A DNA stretch of 64,000 nucleotides from Candidatus Eiseniibacteriota bacterium (GCA_030595835.1 JAUVLG010000001.1:4614-68613); one strand, 5' to 3'; shown: positions 34,919 to 54,459, numbered from the stretch's first letter. Notes: generated from the sequence alone by a model not told the origin. Made by a program: numbers and translations.

Positions 34919-34921
34919 GAA

Positions 34922-36061: not shown

Positions 36062-36064
36062 CGC

Positions 36065-36919
36065 ATGGCGGCGACGGACAAGGACACCGGACTGGGAACC
36101 AGCTACGAGCGCATCGCCGTGGCGCGGCTCCTCGCGGGACTCGCTGAGAGGTACACCATCAGCAAGGTGCTCGAGGGCCCCACGGACGGCATAACAGGAA
36201 TCAGCGGGCTCAACAGCATTCCTCTCGCGCAGCGTGGTGCGTCCGTCGAACTCGTGCTCGGGGATCCCGACGAGGTCGTGCTTGCCGAGCGCGCCTGGGA
36301 GACGCTTGGTCTGAAGGACAGGGTCACGATTCGGGCGGCCGGCGGGGATTCTCTCGGGGTCGAGCCACGCTCCTACGATCTGGTGTGGAACTTCAACTCG
36401 CTTCCCATTGTCGCGTCGGCTGACGCACTTCTGGACGAGATGTGCGAGGCCAGCCGTGAATTCGTCATGGTCTTCGTTTCCAACACGTGGAACTACGGGT
36501 TCCCGATCCATCGCCTTCACCACAAGGTCGCGGGTGAACCATGGAGCCACGGGAACATCTCCGTGATGAACACACGAATGGTATCCGAGAGGCTCGAGCA
36601 GCGGGGATTCAAGATCATCGAGCGCCTGCTGGTCGACACCCCGTGGTGGCCGGACATCGATTCACCGATAGAGGAGGTCGCCGCGACCTTCCTTCCATTC
36701 CTCAAGAGGTTCGTCAGCGGTTCGAAGAGGCTGGAGAGGTACACCTGGACGATAGACACGCTCCCGTACTTCGACGAGGAGCGACTCGCCCGTCTCCTGT
36801 CCGACATCGAGAAGCACTTCGCGATAGAGAACACCGGATTCAAACCCCTCAAGATCTTCTTTGCGCACCACAGAGGCGTGCTCGCGCGGAGGACCGGGGG
36901 CGGGGAGGCGTCGGTTTGA
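36065..36919 (+). CDS. Hypothetical protein, possibly a degenerate class I methyltransferase-like fold
   Basis: VLEGPTDGITGISGL and DLVWNFNSL resemble methyltransferase motifs I and II only loosely. No firm family call. Confidence 0.35.
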   Translation: MAATDKDTGLGTSYERIAVARLLAGLAERYTISKVLEGPTDGITGISGLNSIPLAQRGASVELVLGDPDEVVLAERAWETLGLKDRVTIRAAGGDSLGVEPRSYDLVWNFNSLPIVASADALLDEMCEASREFVMVFVSNTWNYGFPIHRLHHKVAGEPWSHGNISVMNTRMVSERLEQRGFKIIERLLVDTPWWPDIDSPIEEVAATFLPFLKRFVSGSKRLERYTWTIDTLPYFDEERLARLLSDIEKHFAIENTGFKPLKIFFAHHRGVLARRTGGGEASV

Positions 36920-37959
36920 GTCGGCGACTCCGCATAACGCTCGGGATCATAGCGGGCGTTGTTCTCCTGGCACTCGCCCTGTGGGGCGTGGATGCGACCG
37001 AGCTTCGGAACAACATCGCCCGAGCGAAGGTCGGCTGGCTCGCCGCCGCCGCCGTTCTCTACCTCGCCGCGTACTTCGTGCGCAGTCTCAGATGGCGCGC
37101 CATTCTCCACCCAATCGTTCCTGTCCGCGTCTCCGAGAGCTTCCACATGCTCATGGCCGGGTATTTCCTCAACTACATCATCCCGATCAGAGCGGGGGAA
37201 GTGGCGAAGTCGTTCTTTCTGAAGAGGCTCAAGGGTGTGCCGATCGCGACGACCCTCCCGACGGTGTTTGTGGACAAACTGTTCGAACTCGTCTCGATCC
37301 TCTTCGTCGTCACCATGCTGCCGATACTCTCGATCAGCATGAGCGCGACGCTCGCCGCGCTGATCTACACCGTCCTGGCCATCTTCCTGCTGGCGATCGG
37401 GTTGCTCTTCTTCGCGTTTCGAAACCCGGACGGCGCCTCACGTCTTCTGTGCGCCCTGTTCTCGTGGATGCCCCACCGTGTCTACAGTAAGCTGTCCGAA
37501 TTCATCAGCCTCTTCGTGCAGGGCATGGGGGTCGCCAGACGTGAGGCCCGCACGCTCTGGATGTTTCTGGGGCTGACGGGCCTCGCCGTGCTCATCGACG
37601 GGCTCTACTTCTACTTCATGTTCAGGGCCTTTTCGGTCGATGTCGCCTTTACGAGAGTCCTCTTCGGGTATACTCTGCTGACGTTGTCGTACATCCTGCC
37701 GACGCCACCGGCACAGATCGGCTACAACGAGTTCGTGATAGGGCTGATCTTCGCGGGAGGAATCGCGGTGGGCGGTGTGGCCCGAGATGAGGTGATGGCA
37801 GTGGTCATAGTCGCACACGCGATGACGGGGCTTCTCATCGCAGGTGTCGGCATGTGGTCGTTTGGTGCGATGGGTATCAAGGTGAAAGAGAGCTTCAGGA
37901 GGGTGGCCGGCGTCGCAGGGGACGACGGCACGAAGAGCGGGAGGTCGGAGCGTGAGTGA
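36916..37959 (+). CDS. UPF0104/flippase-like domain membrane protein (MprF-N-terminal/AglD-like family)
   Basis: Polytopic. Motifs ALWGVDATELRNNIARAKVGWLAAA, LRWRAIL and YFLNYIIPIRAGEVAKSFFLKR are typical of the TIGR00374 flippase-like family. TTG start at 36916 overlaps the upstream stop (TTGA) and follows GGGGAGG. The track's 36541 start lies inside the previous gene. Confidence 0.6.
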   Translation: MSRRLRITLGIIAGVVLLALALWGVDATELRNNIARAKVGWLAAAAVLYLAAYFVRSLRWRAILHPIVPVRVSESFHMLMAGYFLNYIIPIRAGEVAKSFFLKRLKGVPIATTLPTVFVDKLFELVSILFVVTMLPILSISMSATLAALIYTVLAIFLLAIGLLFFAFRNPDGASRLLCALFSWMPHRVYSKLSEFISLFVQGMGVARREARTLWMFLGLTGLAVLIDGLYFYFMFRAFSVDVAFTRVLFGYTLLTLSYILPTPPAQIGYNEFVIGLIFAGGIAVGGVARDEVMAVVIVAHAMTGLLIAGVGMWSFGAMGIKVKESFRRVAGVAGDDGTKSGRSERE

Positions 37960-38932
37960 GATCGTCCTAGTGACTGGCGCGGCGGGTTTCGTGGGTTCGC
38001 ACGTCGTCGAGCGTTTGCTGGCGGACGGGAAGACCGTGCGCGGTGTGGACGCCTTCATCGACTACTACCCGCGGGCGGTCAAGGAAGAGAATCTCAGGGC
38101 GGCGATGGAGAGCGATTCCTTCGAGCTCGTCGAGGCCGACCTGGCGGTGGCGGATCTCACGCCTATCCTCGAAGGGGTGACGTCGGTTTGTCATCTGGCC
38201 GCGCAGGCCGGGGTCCGTGCCAGTTGGGGAACGACCTTCTCCACCTACATCGACTGCAATATCCTGTCGAGCCAGCGCCTTCTCGAAGCGGTCAAGGACC
38301 GAGCGCTCTCGAGGTTCGTGTACGCGTCCAGCTCATCAGTCTACGGCGAGACGACGGACCTTCCGATGCGGGAGAATGGGCTGACGTGTCCCGTGTCTCC
38401 TTACGGTGTGACGAAGCTGGCGGCCGAGCACCTCGCGGTTCTTTACAATCGGAACTACGGCGTGCCGACGGTGTCGCTCAGGTACTTCACCGTCTACGGT
38501 CCGCGGCAGCGGCCCGACATGGCGTTCCACCGTTTCATCCGCTCGGGGCTTCTGGGCGAGCCGATTACGATCTTCGGTAACGGCCATCAGACGCGCGACT
38601 TCACGTATGTGGGCGACATCGTCGCCGCGACCGTGGCGGCCCTGGAATCGGGGCCCGAGGGAGGTGTGCTGAACGTCGGAGGCGGAAGTCGTGTCACACT
38701 CAATGAGGCACTGGACGCCATAGAGAGCACTCTCGGTATCAAATTGGAGAGGCGGTACATCGAGCGCGCCAGAGGAGATGTTACGGACACACTGGCGGAC
38801 AATTCGAGGGCGAGGGACATGCTCGGCTTCCGTCCGACCGTGGGGCTCGAGGAAGGTCTGGCGCTCGAACGCGGATGGATGGAATCGGCCGTGCTGACGC
38901 CTGGTGCAGCCGCGAACGAGGAGGCTAGCTGA
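37952..38932 (+). CDS. NAD-dependent nucleotide-sugar 4-epimerase (GalE/WbpP-like SDR)
   Basis: VLVTGAAGFVGSHVVERLL, SSSSVYGE and PYGVTKLAAE (YxxxK). GTG start. Confidence 0.75.
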   Translation: MSEIVLVTGAAGFVGSHVVERLLADGKTVRGVDAFIDYYPRAVKEENLRAAMESDSFELVEADLAVADLTPILEGVTSVCHLAAQAGVRASWGTTFSTYIDCNILSSQRLLEAVKDRALSRFVYASSSSVYGETTDLPMRENGLTCPVSPYGVTKLAAEHLAVLYNRNYGVPTVSLRYFTVYGPRQRPDMAFHRFIRSGLLGEPITIFGNGHQTRDFTYVGDIVAATVAALESGPEGGVLNVGGGSRVTLNEALDAIESTLGIKLERRYIERARGDVTDTLADNSRARDMLGFRPTVGLEEGLALERGWMESAVLTPGAAANEEAS

Positions 38933-38935
38933 TAC

Positions 38936-39889
38936 ATGGACATCTCTGTCGTAATACCGTTGCTGAACGAGGCCGACAGCCTGAGGGAGCTCTACGAACG
39001 CATCGACGACGCGCTCGGCCCTCTCGGCCGCGAATGGGAAGTGATCTTCATCAACGATGGAAGCACCGACTCCTCGATGGACGTTCTGCGCAGCCTTCAC
39101 GAGGAGAAGGAGAACGTCAGGGTGCTCGTGTTCGGGAGAAACCTCGGCAAGTCGGCCGCGCTCAGTGTGGGTTTCAAGGAAGCCGTGGGAGACGTCGTTT
39201 TCACCATGGACGCCGATCTACAAGATGACCCCGCGGAGCTGCCTGTGATGCTCAAGATGATAGAGAGCGGGTACGACCTCGTGTCGGGATGGAAGAAGGA
39301 GCGCAGGGACCCACTCTCGAAGCGGCTCCCGTCGAAGCTCTACAACGCGGTGACCGGGAGGCTGTCCGGCGTCGGGATCCACGACATGAACTGCGGACTC
39401 AAGGCGTACCGCAAGCAGGTCGTGAAGACCATCCGGGTGTACGGCGAACTCCACCGCTACACGCCCGTCCTGGCACAGTGGGCGGGCTTCACGGTGACCG
39501 AGGTTGTGGTCAAACACCACGCTCGCAAGCACGGACGCTCGAAGTTCGGCGCGGAGCGCTTCCTCAGAGGCTTCTTCGACCTCCTGACGGTGCTATTCCT
39601 GCGACGCTACATCACAAGACCACTCCACCTCTTCGGGATGTTGGGTGGGGTGCTCTTCTCAGGCGGGTTCCTGGCGGGGCTCTACCTCACGATCCTGAAG
39701 ATCATGGGGCAGGCGATAGGCCGCAGGCCCCTCCTGACGCTCGCGATTCTTCTTATGGTCGTCGGTGTGCAGTTCGTCTCGTTGGGACTCCTGGGAGAGA
39801 TGCTGGCAAATCTCAGAGGGGACGACATCTCGTACCCACTGAGGGAGCGTCTCGGGCGGAAGGACGGTGGGCTTGGCGATAAGTCCTGA
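38936..39889 (+). CDS. Polyprenyl-phosphate glycosyltransferase (GT2, GtrB/ArnC/Dpm1-like with two C-terminal TM helices)
   Basis: ISVVIPLLNEADSL...FINDGSTD...TMDADLQDDP GT-A motifs. C-terminal TM pair: LFGMLGGVLFSGGFLAGLYL and LLTLAILLMVVGVQFVSLGLLG. Confidence 0.75.
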   Translation: MDISVVIPLLNEADSLRELYERIDDALGPLGREWEVIFINDGSTDSSMDVLRSLHEEKENVRVLVFGRNLGKSAALSVGFKEAVGDVVFTMDADLQDDPAELPVMLKMIESGYDLVSGWKKERRDPLSKRLPSKLYNAVTGRLSGVGIHDMNCGLKAYRKQVVKTIRVYGELHRYTPVLAQWAGFTVTEVVVKHHARKHGRSKFGAERFLRGFFDLLTVLFLRRYITRPLHLFGMLGGVLFSGGFLAGLYLTILKIMGQAIGRRPLLTLAILLMVVGVQFVSLGLLGEMLANLRGDDISYPLRERLGRKDGGLGDKS

Positions 39890-41075
39890 GAAGAGCTCGT
39901 CAGCGGACGCGCCTCTCGGATCCGATGCGAGCGCGCGGATCGCCATTGTCGGTCCGGCATATCCTCTGAGGGGTGGCAACGCGCTCTTCGTGGCGCACCT
40001 CTACGACAGCCTGCGGCTTGACCACGACGCCTATGTCGTCTCATTCAGACGGCTGTACCCCTCGCTGCTCTTCCCGGGCAAGACACAGATGAACCTGAGC
40101 CACGACCCCGTCAAGAGCACGCCGTCGCGGCAGATGATCGACTCGGTGAATCCGTTCTCCTGGATTGAGGCGGTCCGGTGGATAACTCAGCCGAAGAGAC
40201 AACCGGACCTGGTAGTCTTCGTTTGGTGGAACCCGTTCTTCGGGGTCTGCTATGGCGCCATGGCACGGATGCTGAGGCGGAAGCTCGGCCACCGCGTCAT
40301 GTTCGTGTGTGAGAACGTCGTATCGCACGAGAATAGATTCGTCGATCGATTCCTGACGAGATTCGCGCTGAGCGCGGCAGACTACTTCATGGTTCTCTCT
40401 GGAGTGGTCGCCAGCCGTGTCCACTCGCTCTTCCCGAGGACGCCGGTGCGACAAGCGGCCCTGCCGATCTACACCTGCTACAATCCGTCCGGTGTCGACC
40501 GCGATGCGGTACGGGAATCGCTTGGGCTCACGCGGCCGACCGTGCTCTTCTTCGGTTACGTCCGTGAGTACAAGGGTCTTGCTTACTTGCTGCGCGCGAT
40601 GCCCATGATACTCGAGGAGATCGACGTTGACCTCCTCGTGGTCGGCGAGTTCTACGACGACCGCTCCAAGTACGACCACATCATAGAGAAACTGGACATA
40701 GGGAAGCGCGTCCGCGTCGTAGCGGAGCACGTCCCGGATGAAGCCGTCGGCAACTATTTCGGAGCAGCGGATGTGGCGGTCCTGCCGTACGTCTCAGCCA
40801 CGCAGAGCGGTATTACACAGATAGCCTTTGCCTTCGGGCTTCCCGTGATAAGCACGAACGTCGGTGGGCTGCCCGAGGTGGTGCGGGAAGGGGAAACGGG
40901 CTATATTGTAGAGCCTGGGGACGAGCGGAAGCTCGCCCGCGCGATCGTGCGCTACTTCACCGCCGGAGACGCTCCGCGGATGAGAGCGAACGTGGCCGTG
41001 GAGGCGCAGCGTGATCACGCTGGTGACCTGATGCGGAGGGCCGTGCAGGACTTTCTCGAGATGGCGAGGTCTTAG
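39867..41075 (+). CDS. Family 4 (GT-B) glycosyltransferase
   Basis: C-terminal GT4 motif ...ADVAVLPYVSATQSGITQIAFAFGLPVISTNVGGLPEVV...GYIVEP. GTG start overlaps the previous gene by 23 nt. Confidence 0.75.
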   Translation: MGLAISPEKSSSADAPLGSDASARIAIVGPAYPLRGGNALFVAHLYDSLRLDHDAYVVSFRRLYPSLLFPGKTQMNLSHDPVKSTPSRQMIDSVNPFSWIEAVRWITQPKRQPDLVVFVWWNPFFGVCYGAMARMLRRKLGHRVMFVCENVVSHENRFVDRFLTRFALSAADYFMVLSGVVASRVHSLFPRTPVRQAALPIYTCYNPSGVDRDAVRESLGLTRPTVLFFGYVREYKGLAYLLRAMPMILEEIDVDLLVVGEFYDDRSKYDHIIEKLDIGKRVRVVAEHVPDEAVGNYFGAADVAVLPYVSATQSGITQIAFAFGLPVISTNVGGLPEVVREGETGYIVEPGDERKLARAIVRYFTAGDAPRMRANVAVEAQRDHAGDLMRRAVQDFLEMARS

Positions 41076-41076
41076 A

Positions 41077-41973
41077 GTGCGGGATCCCCTGGTCCGGGCG
41101 GTGGTGATCAACTGGAACGGCAGGGAGGTTCTCGAGCCGTGTCTGCGGACACTGCTGGCCTCATCATACCCGAACCTCTCGGTGCTGGTTGTGGACAACG
41201 CATCCACCGACGGCTCCGCGCAGTTCGTGCGTGACGAGTTCCCATCCGTCAGTGTGTCCGAGCAGAGCTCAAATCTCGGCTTCGCGGCGGGAGTGAACGT
41301 AGGGCTGAAGGCAGCGCTCGAAGAAGGGGCTGACTACGTACTGCTCCTGAACAACGACATCGAACTGGACGGCGATGCTGTGAGTGCGCTCGTCGAGGCT
41401 GCGCTCGCGCATCCGGAGAGTGCATTCGTAGGTCCCTTGATCTACTACGCCGACCGGCCTTCGGTCATATGGTCGGCGGGCGGTGCGGTGTCCTTCTGGA
41501 CGGGAAACATACGTCACCTCGGCCTTCGTGAAGAGGACGCGGGACAGTACGCCGAAGTGCGGGAGGTCGACTACGTCACGGCTTGTGCCGTGCTCGCGTC
41601 AGCGAAAGCGGTCAGTGCGATCGGCCTGATGGACGAAGCCTACTACATGTACAACGAGGACACGGACTGGTGTATCCGTGCCGGAGATGCAGGCTTCGGC
41701 GTGCTTTTCGCTCCGAGCGCGAGGATCTGGCACAAGGTCTCGATGAGCTCGGGCGGCGGACTGACGCCTTTCAAAATATACCACCGGCTGCGCAGCACCC
41801 TCAGGTTCTTCTCCCTGCACGCGCGGCTCTATCACTGGCTCGGGATCGTCCCCTTCACTGTAGCTCGCACCCTGTGTTTCGCGGTCCGTGAGCTGGCTGG
41901 AGGAAAGGGCGCCAACGTAACCGCGGTCCTGCGCGGTACGTGGGACTCGATGACGCGACAAAGGAGAACCTAG
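41077..41973 (+). CDS. Family 2 glycosyltransferase (rhamnosyltransferase-like)
   Basis: AVVINWNGREVLEPCL...VVDNASTDGS...LNNDIEL...YMYNEDTDWC motifs. GTG start 2 nt after the upstream stop. Confidence 0.75.
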   Translation: MRDPLVRAVVINWNGREVLEPCLRTLLASSYPNLSVLVVDNASTDGSAQFVRDEFPSVSVSEQSSNLGFAAGVNVGLKAALEEGADYVLLLNNDIELDGDAVSALVEAALAHPESAFVGPLIYYADRPSVIWSAGGAVSFWTGNIRHLGLREEDAGQYAEVREVDYVTACAVLASAKAVSAIGLMDEAYYMYNEDTDWCIRAGDAGFGVLFAPSARIWHKVSMSSGGGLTPFKIYHRLRSTLRFFSLHARLYHWLGIVPFTVARTLCFAVRELAGGKGANVTAVLRGTWDSMTRQRRT

Positions 41974-41977
41974 CCAC

Positions 41978-43396
41978 ATGCCCCTTCATTTCACGGGGCC
42001 GCGGCGTGCGGTCCAGAGCAACTCCCCATGTGGGTCAACTGCCGCGTTCGTCCTGACGGCGGTCCTTCTGCTGACACTGCTGCTCGCGGTCGCCGGGTGC
42101 TCGAACGACGAGGCGCCCGTTGCGACACCGTGCCTCCTGTTCTTTGGAGTGGACGCTGGCAACTGGAACATCCTCACACCAATGATGCAGGCAGGTGAGC
42201 TGCCGACACTCACGTCACTGGTCAACAGGGGCTCGTATGGGATCCTGAAATCCGGTGTTCCGATCCAGTCGCCACAGATGTGGACCTCGATAGCTACAGG
42301 CGTCACCCCCGAGAAGCACGGCATCATGCGGTTCACTGCCGAGATCCCGGGAACGGGCCGCGAGGTTCCAGTGACGAGCAACATGAGGAAGGTGAAGGCT
42401 TTCTGGAACATCCTCTCGGAGGCGGACATCACAGTCGGGATAGTGGGGTGGTGGCCCAGCTGGCCCGCGGAGCCGGTCAACGGCTTCATGATCGCCCAGC
42501 GTGCCTGGCCGGTCAACTGGAGTCGGCACGGGATCCCCTTCGGCGCGGCCCGCGATGCGTCGGGCCGTTTGATAGTGGAGCATTTCGAGGGTCGGACCTA
42601 CCCTGAAGAACTGTACGCGGAGTTCGAGCCGTTCATCCTCACCGAGGAGGACGTTACCAGAGACGACCTCGCGCTCCTCTTCTCGGACCCGGCGTTCACG
42701 CCTCCCGTCAAGCAGTTCCACGCCCGCTGGGTGTTCGCGAAGGACAAGACTTTCGCCGATGCGGGTCTGGCAATGCTCAAGCGGTACACGCCGGACGTGT
42801 TCGCGGTCTACCTCCAGGGTACCGACGTCGTCTCCCACTACTACTGGGGCTATCAGCGCGAGGAAGGCTTCACGGTGGCTCCGGCCGACGAGCGGCTCTA
42901 CGGAGGCGTGGTGCGCAACTACTACCGCTACGTCGACGGCGTGATCGCGCGCTATCTGGCGGAGGCCGGAGAGAACACGACGGTCATGGTAGTGTCCGAT
43001 CACGGCTTCGAGACCAAGCGCGACCTCAAGGAGCTCTGGGAGAGGGGCGAGAAGATCCGGACCGAGGAGGGCGGGAAGGACGTGCCGTGGGACCACGGCG
43101 TGGACGGCATCTTCATAATGGCCGGTCCGGGTATCAAGAAGGACAACAGGCTCCCTGACATGTCAGTCGTGGACGTGACACCCACGCTGCTGGCGTACCT
43201 CGGCCTTCCCGTGGCCGAGGACATGGACGGCGCCGCGGAACTCGCGATGTTCGAGGCTTCCTTCCTGGAGGCGAACCCGGTGGCCACCATCTCGACCTAC
43301 GAAACCGGCGGCCCCGGAGGCGATGAGGCTCCGATGGAATCGCCGATGGACGATGGTATCAAAGAGAAGCTGCGGGCACTCGGCTACATAGAGTAG
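41978..43396 (+). CDS. NPP-family (type I phosphodiesterase / nucleotide pyrophosphatase, AlkP superfamily) lipoprotein
   Basis: Lipobox LLAVAGC. MWTSIATGVTPEKHGIM matches the ENPP nucleophile region (HYSIVTGLYPESHGII). VMVVSDHGF metal site. C-terminal ...KLRALGYIE. Confidence 0.65.
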   Translation: MPLHFTGPRRAVQSNSPCGSTAAFVLTAVLLLTLLLAVAGCSNDEAPVATPCLLFFGVDAGNWNILTPMMQAGELPTLTSLVNRGSYGILKSGVPIQSPQMWTSIATGVTPEKHGIMRFTAEIPGTGREVPVTSNMRKVKAFWNILSEADITVGIVGWWPSWPAEPVNGFMIAQRAWPVNWSRHGIPFGAARDASGRLIVEHFEGRTYPEELYAEFEPFILTEEDVTRDDLALLFSDPAFTPPVKQFHARWVFAKDKTFADAGLAMLKRYTPDVFAVYLQGTDVVSHYYWGYQREEGFTVAPADERLYGGVVRNYYRYVDGVIARYLAEAGENTTVMVVSDHGFETKRDLKELWERGEKIRTEEGGKDVPWDHGVDGIFIMAGPGIKKDNRLPDMSVVDVTPTLLAYLGLPVAEDMDGAAELAMFEASFLEANPVATISTYETGGPGGDEAPMESPMDDGIKEKLRALGYIE

Positions 43397-43426
43397 TAGG
43401 CCCTTGAGGGAGGCGGAGCCCTACAA

Positions 43427-44533
43427 ATGCCGATTCATGTGAAGACCGATTGCAGGCTGTTCCTTGGAGACAGACCCTGCGTATGGGGCGGGCGGTGTGA
43501 GGAGTGCGAGCACTACGCCAAGCGGGGCGAGCACATAGTCGTCATCAAACTGGCGGCGGCCGGTGACGTGCTACGGACCACGTCAATCCTGCCTCCACTC
43601 AAGAGAGCGCATCCGGATTCCTTCGTCACGTGGGTCACCGATCCCGTCGCGCTTCCCCTGATAGAGCTTAACCCTTTCGTTGACCGCGCAATCCCGTTTG
43701 GGTTCGACGCGTGGCTGACGCTCTCGGTGCAGTCCATCGACCTCTTGATCTGTCTGGACAAGGATGAGCGCGCGTGCGCCCTCGCCTCAACGCTCAACGC
43801 CGCCGAGAAGTCAGGCTTCGCCCTGTCGCCGGCCGGTGCGGTGGAGCCTCTCAACGAAGGAGCGCGTTACGACTACGATCTGGGGTTGTCCAACGAGATG
43901 AAGTTCCACGAGAACGCGATGACGTACCCCGCGATCTTCTGCCGCACGGCGGGGCTCGAGTATCAGGACGAGCCCTATCTGCTTGCGCTTCCCGAGACTG
44001 CGATCGAGCACGCAAAGGACTTTCTGGGTGGGCTGTCTCTGTCCGAACCCGTGATCGGCCTCAATGTCGGCGCCGGGAACGTTTTCGCGAACAAGGCCTG
44101 GACGACGGAGGGGTACGCGGGCCTGGCGGGCGCGATTCGCGAGAAGCTGGGCGGCACGTCGCTGGTTCTCGGTGGCCCAGCCGACAGGGAGCGTGCGGAG
44201 TCAGTACTGGTCGCAGCACCGGACACCGCCGTCGACGGCGGGCTGCACGAGGTGCTGGATTTCGCTGCGGTGGTCGGGATGCTGGACGCGCTCGTGACCG
44301 GCGACACACTGGCGATGCACATAGCCATCGCGCTCGGCGTGCCCACGGTGGTGCTGTTCGGACCGAGTGCGCCGCAGGAAATAGAGCTGTTCGGGGCAGG
44401 CTCGAAGGTGCTGACCCCGCTCGACTGTGCGCCATGCTACAGACGGGACTGTGACGTGAGGCCGTCCTGCATGGAGGCCATCGATATGGAGACGGTATTC
44501 GAGGCACTCGTGGAGGCGTTGGAGAAGGCATGA
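43427..44533 (+). CDS. Family 9 glycosyltransferase (ADP-heptose:acceptor heptosyltransferase-like)
   Basis: GT9 C-terminal motif VTGDTLAMHIAIALGVPTVVLFGPS. The N-terminus carries an unusual cysteine cluster: CRLFLGDRPCVWGGRCEECEH. Confidence 0.75.
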   Translation: MPIHVKTDCRLFLGDRPCVWGGRCEECEHYAKRGEHIVVIKLAAAGDVLRTTSILPPLKRAHPDSFVTWVTDPVALPLIELNPFVDRAIPFGFDAWLTLSVQSIDLLICLDKDERACALASTLNAAEKSGFALSPAGAVEPLNEGARYDYDLGLSNEMKFHENAMTYPAIFCRTAGLEYQDEPYLLALPETAIEHAKDFLGGLSLSEPVIGLNVGAGNVFANKAWTTEGYAGLAGAIREKLGGTSLVLGGPADRERAESVLVAAPDTAVDGGLHEVLDFAAVVGMLDALVTGDTLAMHIAIALGVPTVVLFGPSAPQEIELFGAGSKVLTPLDCAPCYRRDCDVRPSCMEAIDMETVFEALVEALEKA

Positions 44534-46311
44534 CAGGGGACGCGCTGAAGAACCCCGGCGGGGGAGCCGTCGTGTGGAAAACACTCGTCTTCTCGGGACT
44601 CGGGTTCGCGCTGGCCGTCGGCGCTCTGCTCGGTGTGGTCGGATTCCGGACCAGCGGGTTCGTGCTGACCCTCGTGCCCTCGCAAGTATTGCCAATGCTG
44701 GCCATCTTCGCACTTCTGTACACCGCGCTCGCCGGACTGTGTCTGCTCCTCACCGCCGGCGCGAGAAGGCGCGGCGGGAGCGCCCGCGCCTCCGAACGCG
44801 CGGTCATGACGGCTCTCTTCACCGCAACTCTCTGGGCCGCGCTCGTGCTGATGTTCCTCCCGCTCAAGGGCGCGGAGGCCTTCGTGCAGGCGGACACGCT
44901 GACCACGCTGCAACTCAACGTGATCGGGCTCGCGGTCGTACTGGTGGTCGGCCTTGTTGCGGGCTGGGTTCTCGGCCGGGTGTTGTCTGCCGTCCTCTCG
45001 GCTCTCAGAAGACGAATGGGCAGACGCGGAATCCTCCTGCTTGGAGCGGCGTCCGCGGTCGCGGCTGTCCTGGTCCTCATCGTGGGTGTCCAGCTCAGAT
45101 CCGGTGGGACGGGAGCCTCGGGCGTAGCTGTCGCGGCCGGCGAGACCCCCAGAGTCGCGATAATCGGAGTCGACGGTTGTGACTGGGAAAAGCTCGGACC
45201 TCTAGTTGAGTCGGGCAGACTCCCGAACTTCCGACGCATCATGGAGCGCGGGGCCTACGGACCGCTCCTGTCGGAGCCGCCTCTGGTCTCGCCTCGTATC
45301 TGGACGACCATCGCGACCGGCAAGACGGCCGACAAGCACGGCATCCGCGACTTCATCAACGACGTCGGGGTGCCTGTGAACGCCACAATGAGGACGGCCG
45401 CGCCCGTCTGGGACATCGTCTCCAGCTTTGGTCTCCCTGTCGGTGTTGTCGGGTGGTACGTCACATGGCCGGTGGACGAGGTCAACGGCTTCGTATTGTC
45501 CGACCGGCTCCATTCGTTGCTGCGTGGCCCGGTGCAGATGCTTCAGTCGCTCGGCCGCCACACGACGAACGAGCGTCTGGAGTCCTTCGGAGCGTTCACG
45601 TTTGACGCGGGGTACAAACGCCATGGGGAGGACGAGCTCCGCTTCCAGCTCAACAGGATTGTAGACGAGCCTCTTCGCTGGGGGTATCTGCGCGACGCCA
45701 TCTACACCCGCATGTCAACCACTCTGACGCCGGGCTACAGACCGGTCTTCTCAGCCGTATACCTACGCGGCGTCGACTTCGTTCAGCATTTCTTCTGGCA
45801 GTACGCGGACCCCGAGCCCTTCGGCGGCGTTTCTGAGGAGAGCATCTCGGCGTACGGGGAAGTGATCAACAACTACTACGAATACACCGACGTTCTGCTC
45901 GGTCGGTTGCTCGAGGCTCTGGACGACGACGTCAACATCATCGTGGTGTCCGACCACGGTTTCAAAGCGCGCCTGGACCTGGACCCGGGCAGACCGCAAC
46001 TGACCGGCAGGCATGACGTGGCCGGGGTCATCATTGCGTCCGGCCCCGCGTTTCGCGCGGCGGGACACTTCGAGGGCGCGACGATCTTCGACATTGCGCC
46101 CACGGCGCTCGCGATCATGGGGCTGCCCGTGGGGGAGGACATGGACGGCAGGGTGCTGTTGGAGATCATCAAGCGGGAGCACTTGGCCGTTCGGCCGCTG
46201 TCGTTTATCCCCTCGTACGAGCCCGCCCTCGGTAAGGAGAGGGGAGAGGTCGGGTCGACGATGGACGACGCGATAAGGGAACAGCTCAAGTCACTGGGCT
46301 ACATTGAGTAG
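44530..46311 (+). CDS. Membrane-anchored NPP-family phosphodiesterase, paralog of 41978-43396
   Basis: About 200-aa N-terminal polytopic segment, then PRIWTTIATGKTADKHGIRDF and IIVVSDHGF. C-terminal ...QLKSLGYIE parallels the upstream paralog. ATGA overlap with the GT9 stop. Confidence 0.65.
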   Translation: MTGDALKNPGGGAVVWKTLVFSGLGFALAVGALLGVVGFRTSGFVLTLVPSQVLPMLAIFALLYTALAGLCLLLTAGARRRGGSARASERAVMTALFTATLWAALVLMFLPLKGAEAFVQADTLTTLQLNVIGLAVVLVVGLVAGWVLGRVLSAVLSALRRRMGRRGILLLGAASAVAAVLVLIVGVQLRSGGTGASGVAVAAGETPRVAIIGVDGCDWEKLGPLVESGRLPNFRRIMERGAYGPLLSEPPLVSPRIWTTIATGKTADKHGIRDFINDVGVPVNATMRTAAPVWDIVSSFGLPVGVVGWYVTWPVDEVNGFVLSDRLHSLLRGPVQMLQSLGRHTTNERLESFGAFTFDAGYKRHGEDELRFQLNRIVDEPLRWGYLRDAIYTRMSTTLTPGYRPVFSAVYLRGVDFVQHFFWQYADPEPFGGVSEESISAYGEVINNYYEYTDVLLGRLLEALDDDVNIIVVSDHGFKARLDLDPGRPQLTGRHDVAGVIIASGPAFRAAGHFEGATIFDIAPTALAIMGLPVGEDMDGRVLLEIIKREHLAVRPLSFIPSYEPALGKERGEVGSTMDDAIREQLKSLGYIE

Positions 46312-46355
46312 CGAGTGAGACTTAAGCGACACGCTCGATCCTGCACGGAGGGCCG

Positions 46356-47624
46356 GTGAGGGCCATCAAGAAACTCCAGACCCTGCTTGCCACACATGCA
46401 TCTTCAACACCCACGCGGGTCGGTCGCGTTCTCGGCGTCGTGCTTCTCGGCGCTGGCCTGCAGATCGTCACGCAGACGTTGCTCGCCCGCACACTCCCCA
46501 AGACACAGGTTGGAGTGATATCGCTTCTTCTCGGCGCCCTTCCAATCCTGACAACGCTGTCAATGGCCGGGCAGGGCGCGTCCGTCGTGCGCTTCCTCTC
46601 GAGGAGCGCGCGCGGCACGTACGATACGGCCGCGCACGTACGACGTATCCTCGCTCTCGTACTGCCTCTCGGGGCCGTGGCGGCGCTGGCCGGCGCCGGA
46701 TTCTACGCGCTGGGCTGGGGGCTCGCTCTGGTGCTCGTCGCTCTCGTCGTCTCGCAGAACACAGCGGTGACCGTGAGCTCGGTCCTGCGCGCGGAGCACC
46801 GCTATGAACTTGCAATGGCGGCAACGCACCTGCCTGCCATGGCTGCCGCGCTCGCGCTCATCGTGCTGCGACTCTCAGGACTACTCACGTTCAGAACCGC
46901 CGTCGTGACCTTCGGCGTCGCGTTCCTGTTCTCCGGTTGCCTGATCGCCGTGCGCTGGGCCAAGACGGCTCGAACGGGCGGAAAACCGGTGCCCCGCTCG
47001 GTGGTGCGTGAGGGCCTCTTCCTCCTCGGCCTGAACATCTCCTTCGCGCTCATGGTGTCCGTAGACAAGCTCGTCATAGGGAAGATGCTGCCGTACGCTG
47101 AGTTGGCGGTCTACGCCTCGATCTTCAGCGTCATGAGAGGCTTCGACTTCCTCTTCTACTCGGTTACCTACGTGCTCATGCCGAGGGTCAACGTCCTCCG
47201 GAAGGTTCCGCTTCGGCAGTACAACATTGTGATTGCGGGTCTAGCCGGCGTTGTCACCGTGGGATACCTTCTCCTGGGGGACGACGTCGTGAGCTTCCTT
47301 TATGAGGGGCGCTACGACGAAGGGGCCTATCTCATACTGCCTTTCGCCTTGTCTGGCGTCGCCAAGCTGTTCTACTCTGTTCCCTCCAGCGTGATAGGCG
47401 GACGATTGCCACGACCGGCCCTGAGGCAGTTCCTGTGGTTCAACCTCGCTGCCGTGGTCGTGAACGTGGTTCTGGACATTATCATGATCCGGGCCATGGG
47501 ACTGATGGGGGCGGCGATCGCCACCGCGATCGCGTGGAGCTTGAGGCTTGCGGGAGGCTACATCATCCTCGCGCGGAACCGCTCCCTGCTCGACGTGCGA
47601 GCTGAGGGAACGCCTGAGCCGTAA
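46356..47624 (+). CDS. MOP-superfamily oligosaccharide flippase (Wzx-like)
   Basis: 422 aa with about 12 TM helices and a polysaccharide-biosynthesis-protein layout. GTG start. Confidence 0.65.
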   Translation: MRAIKKLQTLLATHASSTPTRVGRVLGVVLLGAGLQIVTQTLLARTLPKTQVGVISLLLGALPILTTLSMAGQGASVVRFLSRSARGTYDTAAHVRRILALVLPLGAVAALAGAGFYALGWGLALVLVALVVSQNTAVTVSSVLRAEHRYELAMAATHLPAMAAALALIVLRLSGLLTFRTAVVTFGVAFLFSGCLIAVRWAKTARTGGKPVPRSVVREGLFLLGLNISFALMVSVDKLVIGKMLPYAELAVYASIFSVMRGFDFLFYSVTYVLMPRVNVLRKVPLRQYNIVIAGLAGVVTVGYLLLGDDVVSFLYEGRYDEGAYLILPFALSGVAKLFYSVPSSVIGGRLPRPALRQFLWFNLAAVVVNVVLDIIMIRAMGLMGAAIATAIAWSLRLAGGYIILARNRSLLDVRAEGTPEP

Positions 47625-47730
47625 CTCGCCTCGGTCAGATTCGAGTTGCCGGGTGCGGATGCACCGGCAGTGGCATCGTGGGGAACTGGCTCAGAGGAAC
47701 GCTTGAGAGCATCGAGAGAGGGGAAGCACT

Positions 47731-50106
47731 ATGAAGACCAGCAAACGACACAGCGAAGAGCGGAGAGTGCGCGCGCCAAGGGACGGCGAAGCGCCGCCAC
47801 TCTTCGGAAGCCACGCGACACTCATCTCGATCCTGCTCCTGGTAGCCGCGGGGCTCATCTTCTTCTGGCGAGTGCTCTTCCTTGGTGAGATCCTGACGGG
47901 CGGCGACGTCCTGGCTGCGGCAGCCATCTTCGAGGACTACGCGACGGACCAGATGGCGAGCGGGCGGCTCCCCCTCTGGAACCCGTACATCTTCTCGGGA
48001 ATGCCGTTCTTCGACAGCATGAGCTGGAGTGCCTTCGTCTACCCGAGCTACTGGCTCACGTTTGCCCTGGAGAAGATCCCGGGCGTCGAGCTGCCCCGGC
48101 TCTTCTTCCTGTTCCTGCACTACGAGCTGGCCGCGCTCGGCACGTACTTCTACCTGCGGTCACGTAAGGTCGGCCACGGCGGCGCCGTCATCGCGGGGCT
48201 GGCCTTCATGCTGTCACCTCATATGATAGGCTTAGCTACGATCGGGCACGGAGGGAAGATACTCGCGACGGCTTATCTTCCGCTCATCCTGATGGCCGCG
48301 CACAAGCTGATGGAGTCGGCTGACAGGCGGTGGATCGCGATTCTGGGCCTCGTCGGCGGGCTGCAGTTCCTCGCCCGACACGTGCAGATAAGTTACTACA
48401 CATGGCTGGCCGTCCTCGTGCTTATGGTCTACTACCTTGTGGTGCGCCGCCGGGCAGGCGAGCCGTGGAACGCACTGGGCGCGAGCGTCGGGTCAGTGGC
48501 AATCGGCGGCGTTCTGTCCGCAATGCTCGCGGCCGTTCTGCTTCTGCCACTCATGAGTTACTCAGAGTTCTCTACGCGCGCCGCGCACGCCGGCGGGATG
48601 GGTTTCGAGAACGCGGTGATGTGGTCGATGCACCCCAAGGAACTCCTGACCTTCCTTGTCCCGTCCTTCTTCGGCCTGGCGAACGAAACCTACTGGGGGA
48701 CCATGCCGTTCCAGCAGGTCTCTCACTACGTCGGTTACGTGGTGCTCTGCCTCGGTGCTGTTGCGTTGATACGAAGGAAGGACCGCAGCGTCGGCTTCCT
48801 TCTTGCCCTGGTGGCCGTTGGGATCTTCATGTCGTTCGGACGGCACCTGGGACCTGTCTACAGGGTGATCTACCAGGTGCTGCCGGGCTTCCGGCGCTTC
48901 AGGGTCCCTGCCATGTCGCTGATACTGGCGCAGTTCTCGCTGGCGGTACTCGCCGGCTACGGTGCCTCGCTGCTGCTGGGGGAAACCGGGCGTCGCCGGG
49001 GAAGCATGGTACGGTGGGCCATCGGTTGCGCCGCGCTCGGAGGCGTGGTGAGTCTGATCGTAATGGCATCTCGGGGATCGATCGGATCCGCGGCCACAAC
49101 GGCGCTCATGCTGAAGCACGTCGGTGCCCAGGCATCCGCGCTCCGGGAGGTCGGCGCACGTGCGGCCACCATGGCGTTCCGGGACGCAGGAATCCTATTG
49201 GCATTCGCTGCCGCCTCGGGCGTGGCGGTCTTCGTCGCCGGCACGCGCAGGCTGCCTCGCCTGCTCGTGTTCACCCTGCTTCTCGGAGTGGTGATCTGGG
49301 ACGTGGGTGTGGTGAACGCGCGCTTCATGCACCCAGAGAAGATGAGTTCGCTCGATCAGTACTACCGGGAGTCACCGGCCGTATCGTTCCTGAAGCAGCA
49401 GGAGGGCGTGTTCCGGATCGCGCCCGTCGACAGGGAGTTCTCCTCGAACGTGTGGATGTACCATCGGATCCAGACCATCGGCGGCTACCACCCGGCCAAG
49501 CTGGCGGTCGCCGACGACCTTCTGGGCAAGCTGGGTATCGGCAATCTGAAGCTCCTGGCTCTCCTCAACGTCAAATACGTAGTCGGGCCGGAGGAACTCG
49601 ATCACCCGGCGTTTGTGCGCGTTGCACCCGGGGTACACGAGAACCTCGCTGCATTCCCAAGGGTGTTTCTGATCGGCTCGGTCAAGCAGGTCTCGCGCGA
49701 GAGGATGGCACTGACCGAGCTCGGTATCGACAACTTCAATCCGGCAGAGACCGCGATCTTGCTGGAGGAGCTGCCCGGCCCGGTATTTGGCACCGAGGGG
49801 AGCACAGCCGAGCTGGTTTCGTACGAAGCGCACGAGATGACCGTGCACGCCAGCATCCGGCAACCTTGTCTTCTCGTCTTTTCCGAGGTATACTATCCGC
49901 CGGGTTGGAAGGCGTTTGTTGATGGCGCCGAGACGACAATCTATCGAACCGACTACGCTCTGAGATCGGTGTATCTTACGCTCGGTGAACACACCGTGGT
50001 GATGAGGTACGTCCCATCTCAGTTGCGTCGTGGCCTCTTCATCAGTCTCCTCGCGGCCGCTGCCCTAGTGGGACTTTTGGTGTGGCCGGTGAAGCGACAC
50101 GAATAG
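47731..50106 (+). CDS. YfhO-family GT-C membrane glycosyltransferase
   Basis: 791 aa. Large N-terminal TM domain, then a C-terminal domain with EVYYPPGWKAFVDGAETTIYRTDYALRSVYLTLGEHTVVMRY, the characteristic YfhO tail. Confidence 0.75.
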   Translation: MKTSKRHSEERRVRAPRDGEAPPLFGSHATLISILLLVAAGLIFFWRVLFLGEILTGGDVLAAAAIFEDYATDQMASGRLPLWNPYIFSGMPFFDSMSWSAFVYPSYWLTFALEKIPGVELPRLFFLFLHYELAALGTYFYLRSRKVGHGGAVIAGLAFMLSPHMIGLATIGHGGKILATAYLPLILMAAHKLMESADRRWIAILGLVGGLQFLARHVQISYYTWLAVLVLMVYYLVVRRRAGEPWNALGASVGSVAIGGVLSAMLAAVLLLPLMSYSEFSTRAAHAGGMGFENAVMWSMHPKELLTFLVPSFFGLANETYWGTMPFQQVSHYVGYVVLCLGAVALIRRKDRSVGFLLALVAVGIFMSFGRHLGPVYRVIYQVLPGFRRFRVPAMSLILAQFSLAVLAGYGASLLLGETGRRRGSMVRWAIGCAALGGVVSLIVMASRGSIGSAATTALMLKHVGAQASALREVGARAATMAFRDAGILLAFAAASGVAVFVAGTRRLPRLLVFTLLLGVVIWDVGVVNARFMHPEKMSSLDQYYRESPAVSFLKQQEGVFRIAPVDREFSSNVWMYHRIQTIGGYHPAKLAVADDLLGKLGIGNLKLLALLNVKYVVGPEELDHPAFVRVAPGVHENLAAFPRVFLIGSVKQVSRERMALTELGIDNFNPAETAILLEELPGPVFGTEGSTAELVSYEAHEMTVHASIRQPCLLVFSEVYYPPGWKAFVDGAETTIYRTDYALRSVYLTLGEHTVVMRYVPSQLRRGLFISLLAAAALVGLLVWPVKRHE

Positions 50107-50118
50107 GGGAACCCCTGC

Positions 50119-50832
50119 ATGAAGACTACGGTGGTAGTGCCCACCTACAACGAGAGAGCGAACCTGGAAGAGCTGATACCGCGCATCCTGGGGCAGCTCC
50201 CCGACATTGAGCTTCTGGTTGTCGACGACGGTTCCCCGGACGGGACCGGCGAGTACGCGGACTCGGTGGCGGCTGAGAACCCGCGCGTCCAGGTGCTGCA
50301 CCGGCCCGGGAAGATGGGCCTGGGTTCCGCCTATGTCTACGGCTTCACGCATTGCCTCGCCACGGACACCGAGCTCGTGATCCAGATGGACGCGGACTTC
50401 TCGCACAACCCGGACGAGATTCCCAAGCTCGTCGAGCGGGCGCGCACACACGACGTCGTTCTGGGCTCGCGGTACATCAGCGGGGCCAATGTGGTCAACT
50501 GGCCGCTCAGGCGACTGTTTCTGAGCTACTTCGCGAACGTGTATACGCACATCATCACTGGACTGCCACTTCGGGACTCCACGGGCGGTTTCAAGTGCTT
50601 CCGCCGGAAGGTTCTGGCTGAGATAAAACTCGATACCATCAAGTCCGACGGGTACTCGTTCCAGATAGAAGTGAACTTCAGGAGCTGGAGAAAGGGCTTC
50701 TCGATGGTCGAGATCCCCATAGTGTTCGTGGATCGTCACTCCGGCACTTCGAAGATGTCCAGGTGGATAGTATGGGAGGCGATGTGGTTGGTCTGGCGCC
50801 TGAGACTCGAGAGAATACTGAGGAGGCTGTGA
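50119..50832 (+). CDS. Polyprenol-monophosphate hexose synthase (Dpm1/Ppm1-like GT2)
   Basis: VVVPTYNERANLEELI...LVVDDGSPDGT...IQMDADFSHNP: canonical dolichyl/polyprenyl-phosphate mannose synthase core. 237 aa, soluble. Confidence 0.8.
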   Translation: MKTTVVVPTYNERANLEELIPRILGQLPDIELLVVDDGSPDGTGEYADSVAAENPRVQVLHRPGKMGLGSAYVYGFTHCLATDTELVIQMDADFSHNPDEIPKLVERARTHDVVLGSRYISGANVVNWPLRRLFLSYFANVYTHIITGLPLRDSTGGFKCFRRKVLAEIKLDTIKSDGYSFQIEVNFRSWRKGFSMVEIPIVFVDRHSGTSKMSRWIVWEAMWLVWRLRLERILRRL

Positions 50833-53036: not shown

Positions 53037-53082
53037 GAAGGCTCTAGCTAGGCTATGATCTTGCATGAAGGAGCAGACAACC

Positions 53083-54456: not shown

Positions 54457-54459
54457 CCA

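Follow-up and report, generated by a model that had tools for sequence, protein, structure and literature searches.

Paralogous PF01663-domain proteins in an envelope-glycan operon of Candidatus Eisenbacteria: probable extracytoplasmic phosphodiester enzymes

Gene content of the locus

The window analysed here is a stretch of 64,000 nucleotides from an uncultured Candidatus Eisenbacteria bacterium, and it contains an operon of about 30 kb that is syntenic across the phylum. Two paralogous genes, which we call A and B, flank a gene for a GT9-family glycosyltransferase within this operon (Table 1). The three open reading frames all lie on the forward strand where a preliminary description of this DNA had placed them, and both the PF01663 matches of A and B and the PF01075 match of the gene between them bear that description out. 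From its 5' end, the operon encodes a metallophosphoesterase, a GT2 enzyme, a radical SAM/SPASM protein, a DUF362 protein, an unknown gene product, a flippase-like protein (TIGR00374), an epimerase, an ArnC/PgfS-like GT2, a GT4, a further GT2, A, the GT9 enzyme, B, a Wzx-like flippase, a YfhO GT-C enzyme, a GT2, a GT2-Bac_transf fusion, a Reg_prop protein with a T9SS tail, a PglF-like dehydratase, a DegT aminotransferase, a FemAB-like protein, an unknown gene product, a GT4 and a GT2. The genes are tightly packed, and the stop codon of the GT9 gene overlaps the start codon of B (ATGA). The same gene order is found in Eisenbacteria relatives whose B proteins are 54-57% identical, and also at loci L040, L043-45 and L053.

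Table 1. Coordinates of the operon, of A, B and the gene between them, and of neighbouring genes discussed in the text
Feature	Position in window	Strand	Basis
Envelope-glycan operon	32143..61679	+	Co-directional genes; Pfam and NCBIfam matches
ArnC/PgfS-like GT2	38936..39889	+
Paralog A, 472 aa lipoprotein with NPP/PhnA-branch alkaline-phosphatase-superfamily domain	41978..43396	+	PF01663
Predicted signal peptide and lipobox of A (LAVAG-C41)	41978..42100 (Cys codon 42098-42100)	+	Read from sequence
GT9-family glycosyltransferase, 368 aa, cytoplasmic	43427..44533	+	PF01075, 57.7 bits (cut-off 22)
Paralog B, 593 aa, polytopic	44530..46311	+	PF01663
Membrane module of B, aa 1-207, five TM helices, N-in/C-out	44530..45150	+	AlphaFold helices; K+R distribution
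Catalytic domain of B, aa 208-593	45151..46311	+	Catalytic set D215, S254, D416, H420, D475, H476, H495
Wzx-like flippase	46356..47624	+
YfhO GT-C enzyme	47731..50106	+

The surface-glycan locus recognised earlier is a real one: the operon is best explained as assembling a polyprenyl-linked envelope glycan, with A and B as fixed components. Its PglC-like initiating transferase and Wzx-like flippase would serve this pathway, and the ArnC-like GT2 together with the YfhO GT-C enzyme may provide periplasmic glycosylation.

The gene between A and B had been called a heptosyltransferase. Its membership of GT9 is clear, but the protein misses all three heptosyltransferase cut-offs in NCBIfam, scoring 66.0 bits against 134.6 for heptosyltransferase II, 64.9 against 185.3 for I and 41.5 against 170.2 for III, and no heptose-pathway gene was found among the approximately 45 window ORFs scanned. 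On these profile scores, heptosyltransferase identity is not established. The protein has an N-terminal (C9, C18, C24, C27) and a C-terminal (C334, C337, C342, C348) cysteine cluster, supported by the conservation of the Cys residues.

Architecture, catalytic site and family of A and B

A and B match PF01663 with 102.2 and 97.0 bits, respectively (cut-off 23), over model positions 1-226 of 342 only, and both have the alpha/beta core fold of the alkaline-phosphatase superfamily. The motifs quoted for them in the preliminary description are present, WTSIATGVTPEKHGI in A and WTTIATGKTADKHGI in B, each together with VVSDHGF, and the proteins end in LRALGYIE and LKSLGYIE, respectively.

A is, as was originally proposed, a predicted bacterial lipoprotein, and its lipobox has a conserved Cys. 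The strict lipobox pattern is matched by 54 of 77 orthologs, and close variants (LFGC or LWSC, for example) are seen in most of the others; a Cys following the hydrophobic stretch at the C41 position is kept in nearly all full-length orthologs. Judged from the Ser at position +2, the lipid anchor of A is possibly destined for the outer membrane.

B carries instead the N-terminal multi-TM domain of roughly 200 residues that had been noted before. AlphaFold (pLDDT 89.6, pTM 0.89) places its helices at residues 11-37, 50-82, 85-113, 126-162 and 165-191. Since loops 2-3 and 4-5 contain 5 K+R residues each, as opposed to 1 in loop 1-2 and none in loop 3-4, the positive-inside rule predicts that the catalytic domain lies outside the cytoplasm. 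The module has no match in Pfam, and a profile built from it and searched against 1.84 billion proteins retrieved B orthologs only; many family members, A included, are without it. It looks like an acquisition by B, as the preliminary description supposed. Conservation within the module peaks in the periplasmic TM3-TM4 loop, FLPLKGxExFV..LTTxQLN, which has invariant residues and reaches 0.81 compared with 0.75 for the catalytic domain of B. Because the module is conserved, its periplasmic loop most of all, and because a lipid anchor suffices for A, we infer that the module has a role beyond anchoring.

The catalytic residues of A are D59, S98 (the nucleophile), D283, H287, D341, H342 and H373, all invariant in the alignment save H373, which is kept in at least 90% of sequences. 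With that exception, the six metal ligands and the Ser are invariant in alignments of 66-74 sequences, and the full set is retained across all paralog classes. The nucleophile can be placed more exactly than in the preliminary description: S98 of A and S254 of B stand six residues N-terminal of the S/T that opens the motif it quoted, within (Q/V)-S-P-x-x-W (Q-S-P-Q-M-W in A, V-S-P-R-I-W in B). This Ser is invariant in alignments A1-A4, with Thr only in one outgroup protein (L056). The two PhnA sequences available in the PDB diverge at the aligned position, one having T and the other A.

A and B are 33% identical over 430 residues (E=7e-74), and their shared tail had been taken to mark them as duplicates. 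They are indeed paralogs, but the ending LGYIE is shared by almost every one of 240 homologs spread over many phyla, the family hallmark being L(R/K)(A/S)LGY(I/L/V), and, as it is family-wide, it is no sign of a close or recent duplication. Since A and B are as similar to each other as either is to family members of other phyla (31-39% identity), we infer that the split between them is ancient. On sequence grounds, both belong to a distinct, uncharacterised clade in the NPP/PhnA branch of the alkaline-phosphatase superfamily; no characterised member of this clade was found, the only label being 'predicted AlkP superfamily phosphohydrolase/phosphomutase'.

The family is expanded in Eisenbacteria as secreted lipoproteins, with 7-8 paralogs per genome that include a separate array of 5-6 in tandem. 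One paralog in the tandem array is a conserved pseudoenzyme, and the array has as neighbours a protein combining PMT_2 with TPR and another with a T9SS tail. A GT-C glycosyltransferase (PMT_2 or YfhO) lies within 10 kb of family members, and often adjacent to them, in 31/76 loci, a raw count in which many of the 31 are related Eisenbacteria arrays. Gemmatimonadetes, Planctomycetota and Latescibacteria are among the independent lineages represented in the 31, which also include the outgroup locus L004. Most outgroup loci have no glycan genes in common with the window.

Candidate roles of A and B

A and B probably attach or detach phosphate-linked groups in the extracytoplasmic space, and we have good, though not full, confidence that this is periplasmic phosphodiester chemistry tied to the glycan of the operon. 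Phosphodiester chemistry on the glycan, as suggested initially, is the most reasonable reading, with the exception of nucleotide-sugar cleavage, which is unlikely because both catalytic domains are predicted to be extracytoplasmic.

In its full form our proposal is tentative, and we would give it a little under an even chance: A and B would be extracytoplasmic two-metal Ser-nucleophile phosphoryl-transfer enzymes, B transferring a phospho-substituent to the glycan and A modifying or trimming. The Ser of A or B would attack a phosphodiester or pyrophosphate to give a covalent phospho-enzyme intermediate. B would act on the periplasmic face of the inner membrane, where its TM module may hold a lipid-embedded substrate; the acceptor would be not water but a hydroxyl group of the growing glycan, to which B would pass the phospho-substituent. 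Candidates for this substituent are phospholipid head groups, such as phosphoethanolamine or phosphoglycerol, and a glycosyl-phosphate donated by a polyprenyl-PP compound. Lipid-tethered A would make a second such modification, or trim the first, on a more mature glycan. Bacterial polytopic alkaline-phosphatase-superfamily proteins are typically lipid-donor transferases. In this superfamily, the covalent intermediate can resolve by hydrolysis or by transfer, and some members are phosphotransferases for which phospholipids supply phosphoglycerol, PEtN or PCho and LPS or GPI serves as acceptor (PMC3249071). Weighing against the proposal are the lack of any characterised clade member, the many family members without a TM module and the outgroup loci, most of which have no glycan genes in common with the window. 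That the chemistry of A and B takes the transferase form is, in our estimate, plausible at rather less than an even chance.

The complete NPP/AP-type two-metal site of A and B counts against transfer and would suit plain periplasmic hydrolases that trim phospho-substituents, release the glycan from its polyprenyl-pyrophosphate carrier or recycle Und-PP to Und-P. The closest folds and profile matches are likewise all hydrolases (Xac NPP, ENPP4/6/7, PafA and PhnA), among which ENPP6 and ENPP7 are described as cutting lipid or head-group phosphodiesters at membranes. The operon moreover has a Bac_transf/Wzx route, a type of route that releases Und-PP, and no BacA or PAP2 gene was found among the annotated cluster genes. 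However, the recurrent partners of the family, PMT_2 and YfhO, use polyprenyl-monophosphate-sugars and release Und-P, and therefore do not need a pyrophosphatase; 7-8 paralogs per genome are ill-suited to a housekeeping carrier phosphatase, and a five-TM module whose periplasmic loop is conserved exceeds what anchoring requires. We consider simple hydrolysis unlikely, while still a serious contender.

Quite improbable is a role in protein modification, in which A and B would add or remove phospho-forms, their targets being secreted proteins, outer-membrane proteins or glycans attached to protein, like PptA on Neisseria pilin, and the operon would be a protein-glycosylation system. Many family members carry fused C-terminal TPR domains, the paralog array lies beside proteins with a TPR and a T9SS tail, and the operon itself has PgfS- and PgfM-like (YfhO) matches, the PglF/DegT pair and a T9SS-tailed protein. 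A and B, however, lack TPR or any other protein-binding domain, the PgfS and PgfM scores fall far under the NCBIfam equivalog cut-offs, and T9SS-tailed proteins are probably common in such genomes, so that their adjacency may be due to chance.

Organophosphate is mineralised by some bacterial PF01663 members, PafA among them (PMC8812569). This precedent and the expansion of the family as secreted lipoproteins would fit phosphate-scavenging phosphatases or phosphodiesterases of the PafA or PhoX type with no functional tie to the glycan operon. We judge this very improbable: throughout the phylum, even at 53% identity, the position between glycosyltransferases is strictly kept, start and stop codons overlap, and no Pho-regulon genes were found nearby among the annotated cluster genes. 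Sulfatases in which the radical SAM/SPASM enzyme of the operon would turn the Ser into formylglycine are scarcely credible and largely refuted by the motif, which is Q/V-S-P-x-x-W and not C/S-x-P-x-R; the ligands form the six-residue Asp/His two-metal NPP/AP site, PF01663 outscores PF00884 by 60-75 bits, and the top NCBIfam matches of the radical SAM protein are peptide or cofactor maturases, far under their cut-offs, with no sulfatase maturase among the best 25 of 43.

On the broader and rather doubtful reading set out below, Eisenbacteria would install phosphodiester-linked groups on an envelope glycan, with B working from the inner membrane and A from its lipid anchor, and the 5-6 further tandem paralogs, including the conserved pseudoenzyme, would diversify that chemistry.

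Comparison with known phosphoryl-transfer systems

The description of A and B as ENPP-like does not extend to true NPP kinship. In structural alignments they are only 15-22% identical to the NPPs (Xac NPP, ENPP4/6/7), which have a Thr nucleophile whereas A and B have Ser, and on both counts ENPP orthology is ruled out. A and B also differ in about 150 residues of family-specific insertions, in their hallmark LGY tail, in being anchored by lipid or five TM helices and in their biosynthetic setting. They match no NPP-type equivalog in NCBIfam, and single-sequence searches of the PDB with A and B reached no NPP. The best sequence-profile match of the family in the PDB is PhnA (TIGR02335; PDB 3SZY, 1EI6; E=1.7e-14), the N-terminal metal-ligand and nucleophile region of which aligns well. 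A was rejected as a PhnA phosphonoacetate hydrolase, scoring 28.3 bits against a cut-off of 407.55 with a partial, N-terminal match only.

EptA/MCR-1, LtaS/LtaP and OpgB share the superfamily fold with A and B, and the setting of envelope-glycan decoration or synthesis. B, but not the lipoprotein A, also resembles them in architecture, with about five TM helices, the N-terminus inside and an extracytoplasmic catalytic domain; homology of the N-terminal membrane domains was not found. They belong to the PF00884 branch, which is not the best family assignment for A and B. LtaS works alongside a CsbB-type GT2 and YfhO. B would function like EptA, LtaS, OpgB or PIG-N, yet stand outside the bacterial EptA/LtaS family.

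PIG-N, PIG-O and PIG-G (Mcd4, Gpi13 and Gpi7) presumably fall under the PF01663/IPR002591 umbrella. They act between GT-C mannosyltransferase steps of the GPI pathway, which parallels the link of the A/B family to GT-C genes. PIG-N-type proteins have large C-terminal multi-TM domains in contrast to the N-terminal five-TM module of B. These GPI-pathway proteins are Zn enzymes with ALP-like active sites (PMC9168625), and as members of the alkaline-phosphatase superfamily they transfer phospholipid head groups to sugars on the non-cytoplasmic side of the membrane (PMC9168625, PMC3249071). A rather doubtful but broader proposal is that the widespread LGY-tailed clade would be an unrecognised class of bacterial periplasmic phospho-substituent transferases built on the PF01663 domain, counterparts of PIG-N/O/G that partner GT-C enzymes (YfhO, PMT_2). 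Such chemistry had been regarded as non-standard for glycan loci, but transfer onto envelope glycans is well known in the superfamily (EptA-C, OpgB, LtaS; PMC3249071), and the unusual feature of A and B is their PF01663-type catalytic domain, not phospho-substituent transfer as such.

Genes, family assignment and catalytic site of A and B

The three open reading frames named in the preliminary description are present exactly as delimited there and in one orientation (see table), with the GT9 gene indeed bracketed by A, the putative lipoprotein paralog, and B, the paralog with predicted N-terminal transmembrane (TM) helices. The ATG of A starts 4 nt past the stop codon of the preceding GT2 gene, with an AGGAG-like site upstream, and the GT9 stop and the B start overlap (ATGA). 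These junctions are those of a packed operon; a scan for promoters and terminators gave nothing above chance. A and B share 33% identity over 430 aligned residues (E=7e-74), and no third copy was found in the window using tblastn.

Both proteins belong to the alkaline-phosphatase superfamily and, within it, to PF01663, although two thirds of the Pfam model only were matched; secondary PF00884 matches were weaker. When single sequences were used to search the PDB, marginal matches only were obtained, to PhnA and iPGM, and relatives beyond that level were reached with a profile of the family, by which we mean A, B and their homologs of PF01663 type that carry the L(R/K)(A/S)LGY element. This profile matched PhnA (1.7e-14), Xac NPP (7.5e-12) and LtaS (1.3e-4), with EptA absent among the 60 matches listed, and a Foldseek search with the B model placed ENPPs on top, at an E of about 1e-11 and 15% identity. 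The NPP/ENPP-like label of the preliminary description therefore stands at the level of fold and of Pfam PF01663, but not as ENPP orthology, since identity to NPPs is 15-22% and the nucleophile of A and B is a Ser. None of the NCBIfam equivalogs was approached (PhnA, 28 bits where 407 are required), and A and B lie outside the ENPP, PhnA, EptA/LtaS and sulfatase families. Database labels for the family are solely 'alkaline phosphatase family protein' and 'predicted AlkP superfamily phosphohydrolase/phosphomutase', and no characterised member was found in the literature on COG3379, PF01663 and the AlkP superfamily. We conclude that A and B represent an uncharacterised, widespread, LGY-tailed clade, which appears here as a pair of lipoprotein and polytopic protein in a phylum-conserved envelope-glycan operon.

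Invariant columns, identical for A and B in alignments of 66 and 74 homologs, show that each protein has the full two-metal site known from NPPs and alkaline phosphatases, with nucleophile and metal ligands kept in both: a metal-binding Asp (D59 in A, D215 in B), the nucleophilic Ser (S98; S254), an Asp-x3-His pair of ligands (D283 and H287; D416 and H420), an Asp-His pair (D341 and H342; D475 and H476) and a ligand His conserved at 90% or more (H373; H495). The nucleophile motif reads (Q/V)-S-P-x-x-W, so that the preliminary description had the right region, but the catalytic Ser lies six positions upstream of the start of the motif proposed there. In HMMER alignments to phosphonoacetate hydrolase, this Ser pairs with the sole T-vs-A difference between two deposited PhnA sequences, which we read as a probable engineered nucleophile mutant.

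The common LGYIE ending had been taken to mark A and B as duplicates. Paralogs they are, but the tail does not prove it: almost every one of 240 homologs, from Nitrospinota, Deltaproteobacteria and Planctomycetota among others, carries L(R/K)(A/S)LGY(I/L/V)(E/Q/D), which lies internally, at the domain boundary, in homologs extended by a C-terminal TPR. Rather than a sorting signal or a mark of recent duplication, the tail is a hallmark of the family that closes the catalytic domain. Over 429 shared columns, A and B are no closer to each other (33%) than either is to members from other phyla (31-39%), and in a neighbour-joining tree their clades are joined only by a short, unsupported branch; they are ancient paralogs.

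Coordinates of A, B and associated features (window positions, or genome loci with an L number)
Feature	Position	Strand	Length	Match or remark
A	41978-43396	+	472 aa	PF01663, 102.2 bits (cut-off 23)
GT9 gene	43427-44533	+	368 aa	PF01075/GT9, 57.7 bits
B	44530-46311	+	593 aa	PF01663, 97.0 bits (cut-off 23)
Operon	about 32.1-61.7 kb
Block heading the operon	33782-37959			rSAM/SPASM, DUF362, weakly methyltransferase-like ORF, flippase-like (TIGR00374)
Operon ORF	36065-36919		284 aa	no significant family match
GT2+Bac_transf fusion	50763-53036		757 aa	PglC/WbaP-type initiating phosphoglycosyl transferase
Reg_prop-repeat protein	53065-54456
Operon ORF	58250-59536		428 aa	no significant family match
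PcrB-family gene	3855-4652			GGGP-synthase-like
UbiA prenyltransferase gene	7950-8840
SelA gene	20269-21681			selenocysteine synthase
Tandem-array locus	L015:7377-16743; L010:7304-16500; also L011, L013-L018, L021, L028, L030, L032, L033			Eisenbacteria and relatives
Family paralogs of the array	e.g. L015:7377-14279		410-460 aa each	signal peptide
Fourth array member	L015:11692-12933; L010:11385-12617
Tandem polytopic pairs or triples	L046:7263-11290 (Zixibacteria); L051:7326-11299 and L052 (LCP-89); L042, L077, L007		pairs about 680 + 638 aa, triples about 625 aa
Polytopic triple	L004:6006-11875		about 625 aa each	outgroup

Anchoring and membrane topology

The signal peptide of A ends in LAVAG-C41, in agreement with the lipobox noted earlier for one of the two proteins, and since a Cys after a hydrophobic stretch is kept in almost all full-length A orthologs, A is very probably a lipoprotein. 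Confident AlphaFold models were obtained for A (pLDDT 89.9, pTM 0.87) and B (pLDDT 89.6, pTM 0.89), the latter with five long N-terminal helices. Loops 2-3 and 4-5 of B each hold 5 Lys and Arg residues, loops 1-2 and 3-4 just 1 and 0, which gives an N-in, C-out topology and places the catalytic domains of both A and B outside the cytoplasm.

Within the membrane module of B orthologs, conservation peaks in the predicted periplasmic TM3-TM4 loop (FLPLKGxExFV..LTTxQLN), at 0.81 compared to 0.75 in the catalytic domain. In a search of 1.84 billion proteins, a profile of the module retrieved just seven representatives, each one a B ortholog or fragment, and the module had no match in Pfam, so that the earlier proposal of a TM domain gained by B is reasonable. 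Polytopic members also occur elsewhere in the family, often as tandem pairs or triples, with three in the outgroup locus L004. These polytopic relatives, which include those of Zixibacteria, LCP-89 and L004, have 4-5 TM helices and again a nucleophile near residue 254. No sequence similarity was detected between their TM regions and that of B, which may reflect either extreme divergence or independent acquisition.

Genomic setting of A, B and their relatives

Named homologs of A and B come from Candidatus Eisenbacteria MAGs, with orthologs throughout the phylum at 53-100% identity for A and 53-91% for B, followed by a sharp drop to about 40%. Even relatives with a B of just 54-57% identity keep the order of the whole neighbourhood, as do L040, L043-45 and L053. 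This order runs rSAM/SPASM, DUF362, unknown, flippase-like, epimerase, ArnC-like GT2, GT4, GT2, A, GT9 and B, and continues with a Wzx-like flippase, YfhO, GT2, GT2+Bac_transf, Reg_prop protein, PglF-like and DegT. A and B have a firm place in an operon for a glycan built on a polyprenyl carrier, and the same operon carries components of a periplasmic-glycosylation system (ArnC/PgfS-like GT2, flippase-like protein and YfhO). No lpx or ADP-heptose genes were found among the roughly 45 window ORFs scanned, and literature searches turned up no envelope biology for Eisenbacteria.

The block that heads the operon occurs phylum-wide, and its rSAM protein weakly resembles peptide or cofactor maturases. 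The Reg_prop-repeat protein inside the operon, whose position is kept in relatives, is secreted and carries a type IX secretion C-terminal sorting domain, confirmed in the window copy only. Likewise kept in relatives is the GT2+Bac_transf fusion, the annotated start of which overlaps the previous GT2 by about 70 nt. The longer of the two operon ORFs without a significant family match is a possible candidate for the missing polymerase or ligase. Upstream of the operon lie housekeeping genes, among them the PcrB-family and UbiA genes, which may belong to isoprenoid ether-lipid synthesis in a bacterium of the FCB group, and the SelA gene in the window suggests that the organism makes selenoproteins.

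The enzyme encoded between A and B had been called a heptosyltransferase, a name that is unproven because the protein scores far short of the equivalog thresholds for heptosyltransferases I, II and III. It contains two four-Cys clusters, both of which may bind a metal or an Fe-S centre; C334/C337/C342/C348 is kept in every family-linked GT9 found, including those of L004 and L056, and C9/C18/C24/C27 is confined to Eisenbacteria GT9s. The idea that GT9 generally accompanies the family was rejected: it is present in L004 and at 6 of 76 genome loci, all but one of these six being the Eisenbacteria A/B operon, and GT-C is far commoner. Overall, what the preliminary description observed is confirmed and its reading is supported in part, the NPP type being upheld at the level of fold and Pfam family, but not the tail argument or the name heptosyltransferase.

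Genome loci were collected with a 12-sequence alignment led by an Eisenbacteria paralog, so that Eisenbacteria are over-represented among the best 80 loci. A GT-C gene (PMT_2 or YfhO) lies within 10 kb of a family member, and frequently adjacent to it, in 31 of 76 loci from many phyla, including Gemmatimonadetes, Planctomycetota and Latescibacteria; the association is suggestive, as many of the 31 are related Eisenbacteria arrays and the count comes without a background rate. In L004, the three polytopic members lie among four PMT_2, three GT2 and two GT9 genes. Most other outgroup loci had no neighbours in common with the window, and the contexts of the outgroup proteins P0119 and P0091 held nothing informative on glycan function.

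A separate Eisenbacteria locus carries 5-6 tandem family paralogs downstream of glyQS, followed directly by an approximately 810-aa PMT_2 (GT-C) + TPR protein and then by a T9SS-tailed InhA-like protein. In both genomes examined, the fourth array member has its nucleophile changed from S to L/A, together with D59 to E/Q, H114 to Q and H287 to Q, at least two of which are metal ligands, and it has no LGY tail. It appears to be a conserved pseudoenzyme, possibly serving as a binding subunit.

A possible role in phosphodiester chemistry on the envelope glycan

By sequence and model, both A and B lie outside the cytoplasm and keep NPP-type catalytic machinery intact, the one lipid-anchored and the other equipped with a conserved polytopic module, and their involvement in periplasmic phosphodiester chemistry tied to the envelope glycan is likely. 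The covalent phospho-Ser/Thr intermediate of superfamily enzymes can be resolved by water, an intramolecular group or an acceptor hydroxyl, and a whole set of these enzymes use phospholipids as the source of the phosphoglycerol, phosphoethanolamine or phosphocholine that they transfer to LPS, teichoic acids or GPI (PMC3249071; PMC9168625). By analogy, we tentatively favour transfer of a phospho-substituent within this glycan-tied chemistry: B would act on a membrane-embedded substrate and most likely pass the substituent to the nascent glycan, and A might carry out a related modification or trimming at a later step. For B, this view draws on the fact that polytopic superfamily members of bacteria are typically lipid-donor transferases, on the conserved periplasmic loop of its module, whereas a lipid suffices to anchor A, and on the link between the family and GT-C, which mirrors the alternation of GT-C mannosyltransferases with PIG-N-type enzymes in the GPI pathway.

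Against transfer, most family members are without a TM module, the likeness of B to EptA/LtaS is one of architecture only, and all close structural relatives of A and B are hydrolases. The last point speaks for hydrolysis, including trimming and carrier-pyrophosphate cleavage, which within the same glycan-tied chemistry is conceivable, if on the unlikely side; an ordinary outcome, with A and B as accessory hydrolases, is quite possible. Protein-directed modification by A and B is improbable and phosphate scavenging decidedly more so. A sulfatase with an rSAM-maturated Ser was rejected, since A and B have no C/S-x-P-x-R motif, their ligand set is wrong for it and the rSAM protein is not maturase-like; sulfatase activity of A and B is scarcely credible.

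Transfer by B is a coherent lead that can be tested in vitro, for a function that we infer in uncultured organisms. Should the enzymes be hydrolases only, the outcome would be a modest annotation refinement, and either way the conserved 30-kb operon is a starting point for the Eisenbacteria cell envelope. If, on the other hand, B and its relatives are transferases, this would give a function to a large 'alkaline phosphatase family protein' family in many uncultured and environmental phyla and explain its repeated linkage to GT-C. They would then constitute a second, independent bacterial lineage for placing phosphate-linked groups, with their bearing on charge, antigenicity and resistance to cationic peptides, on envelope glycans, and one whose mechanism has more in common with the eukaryotic GPI-anchor enzymes than with EptA/MCR-1.
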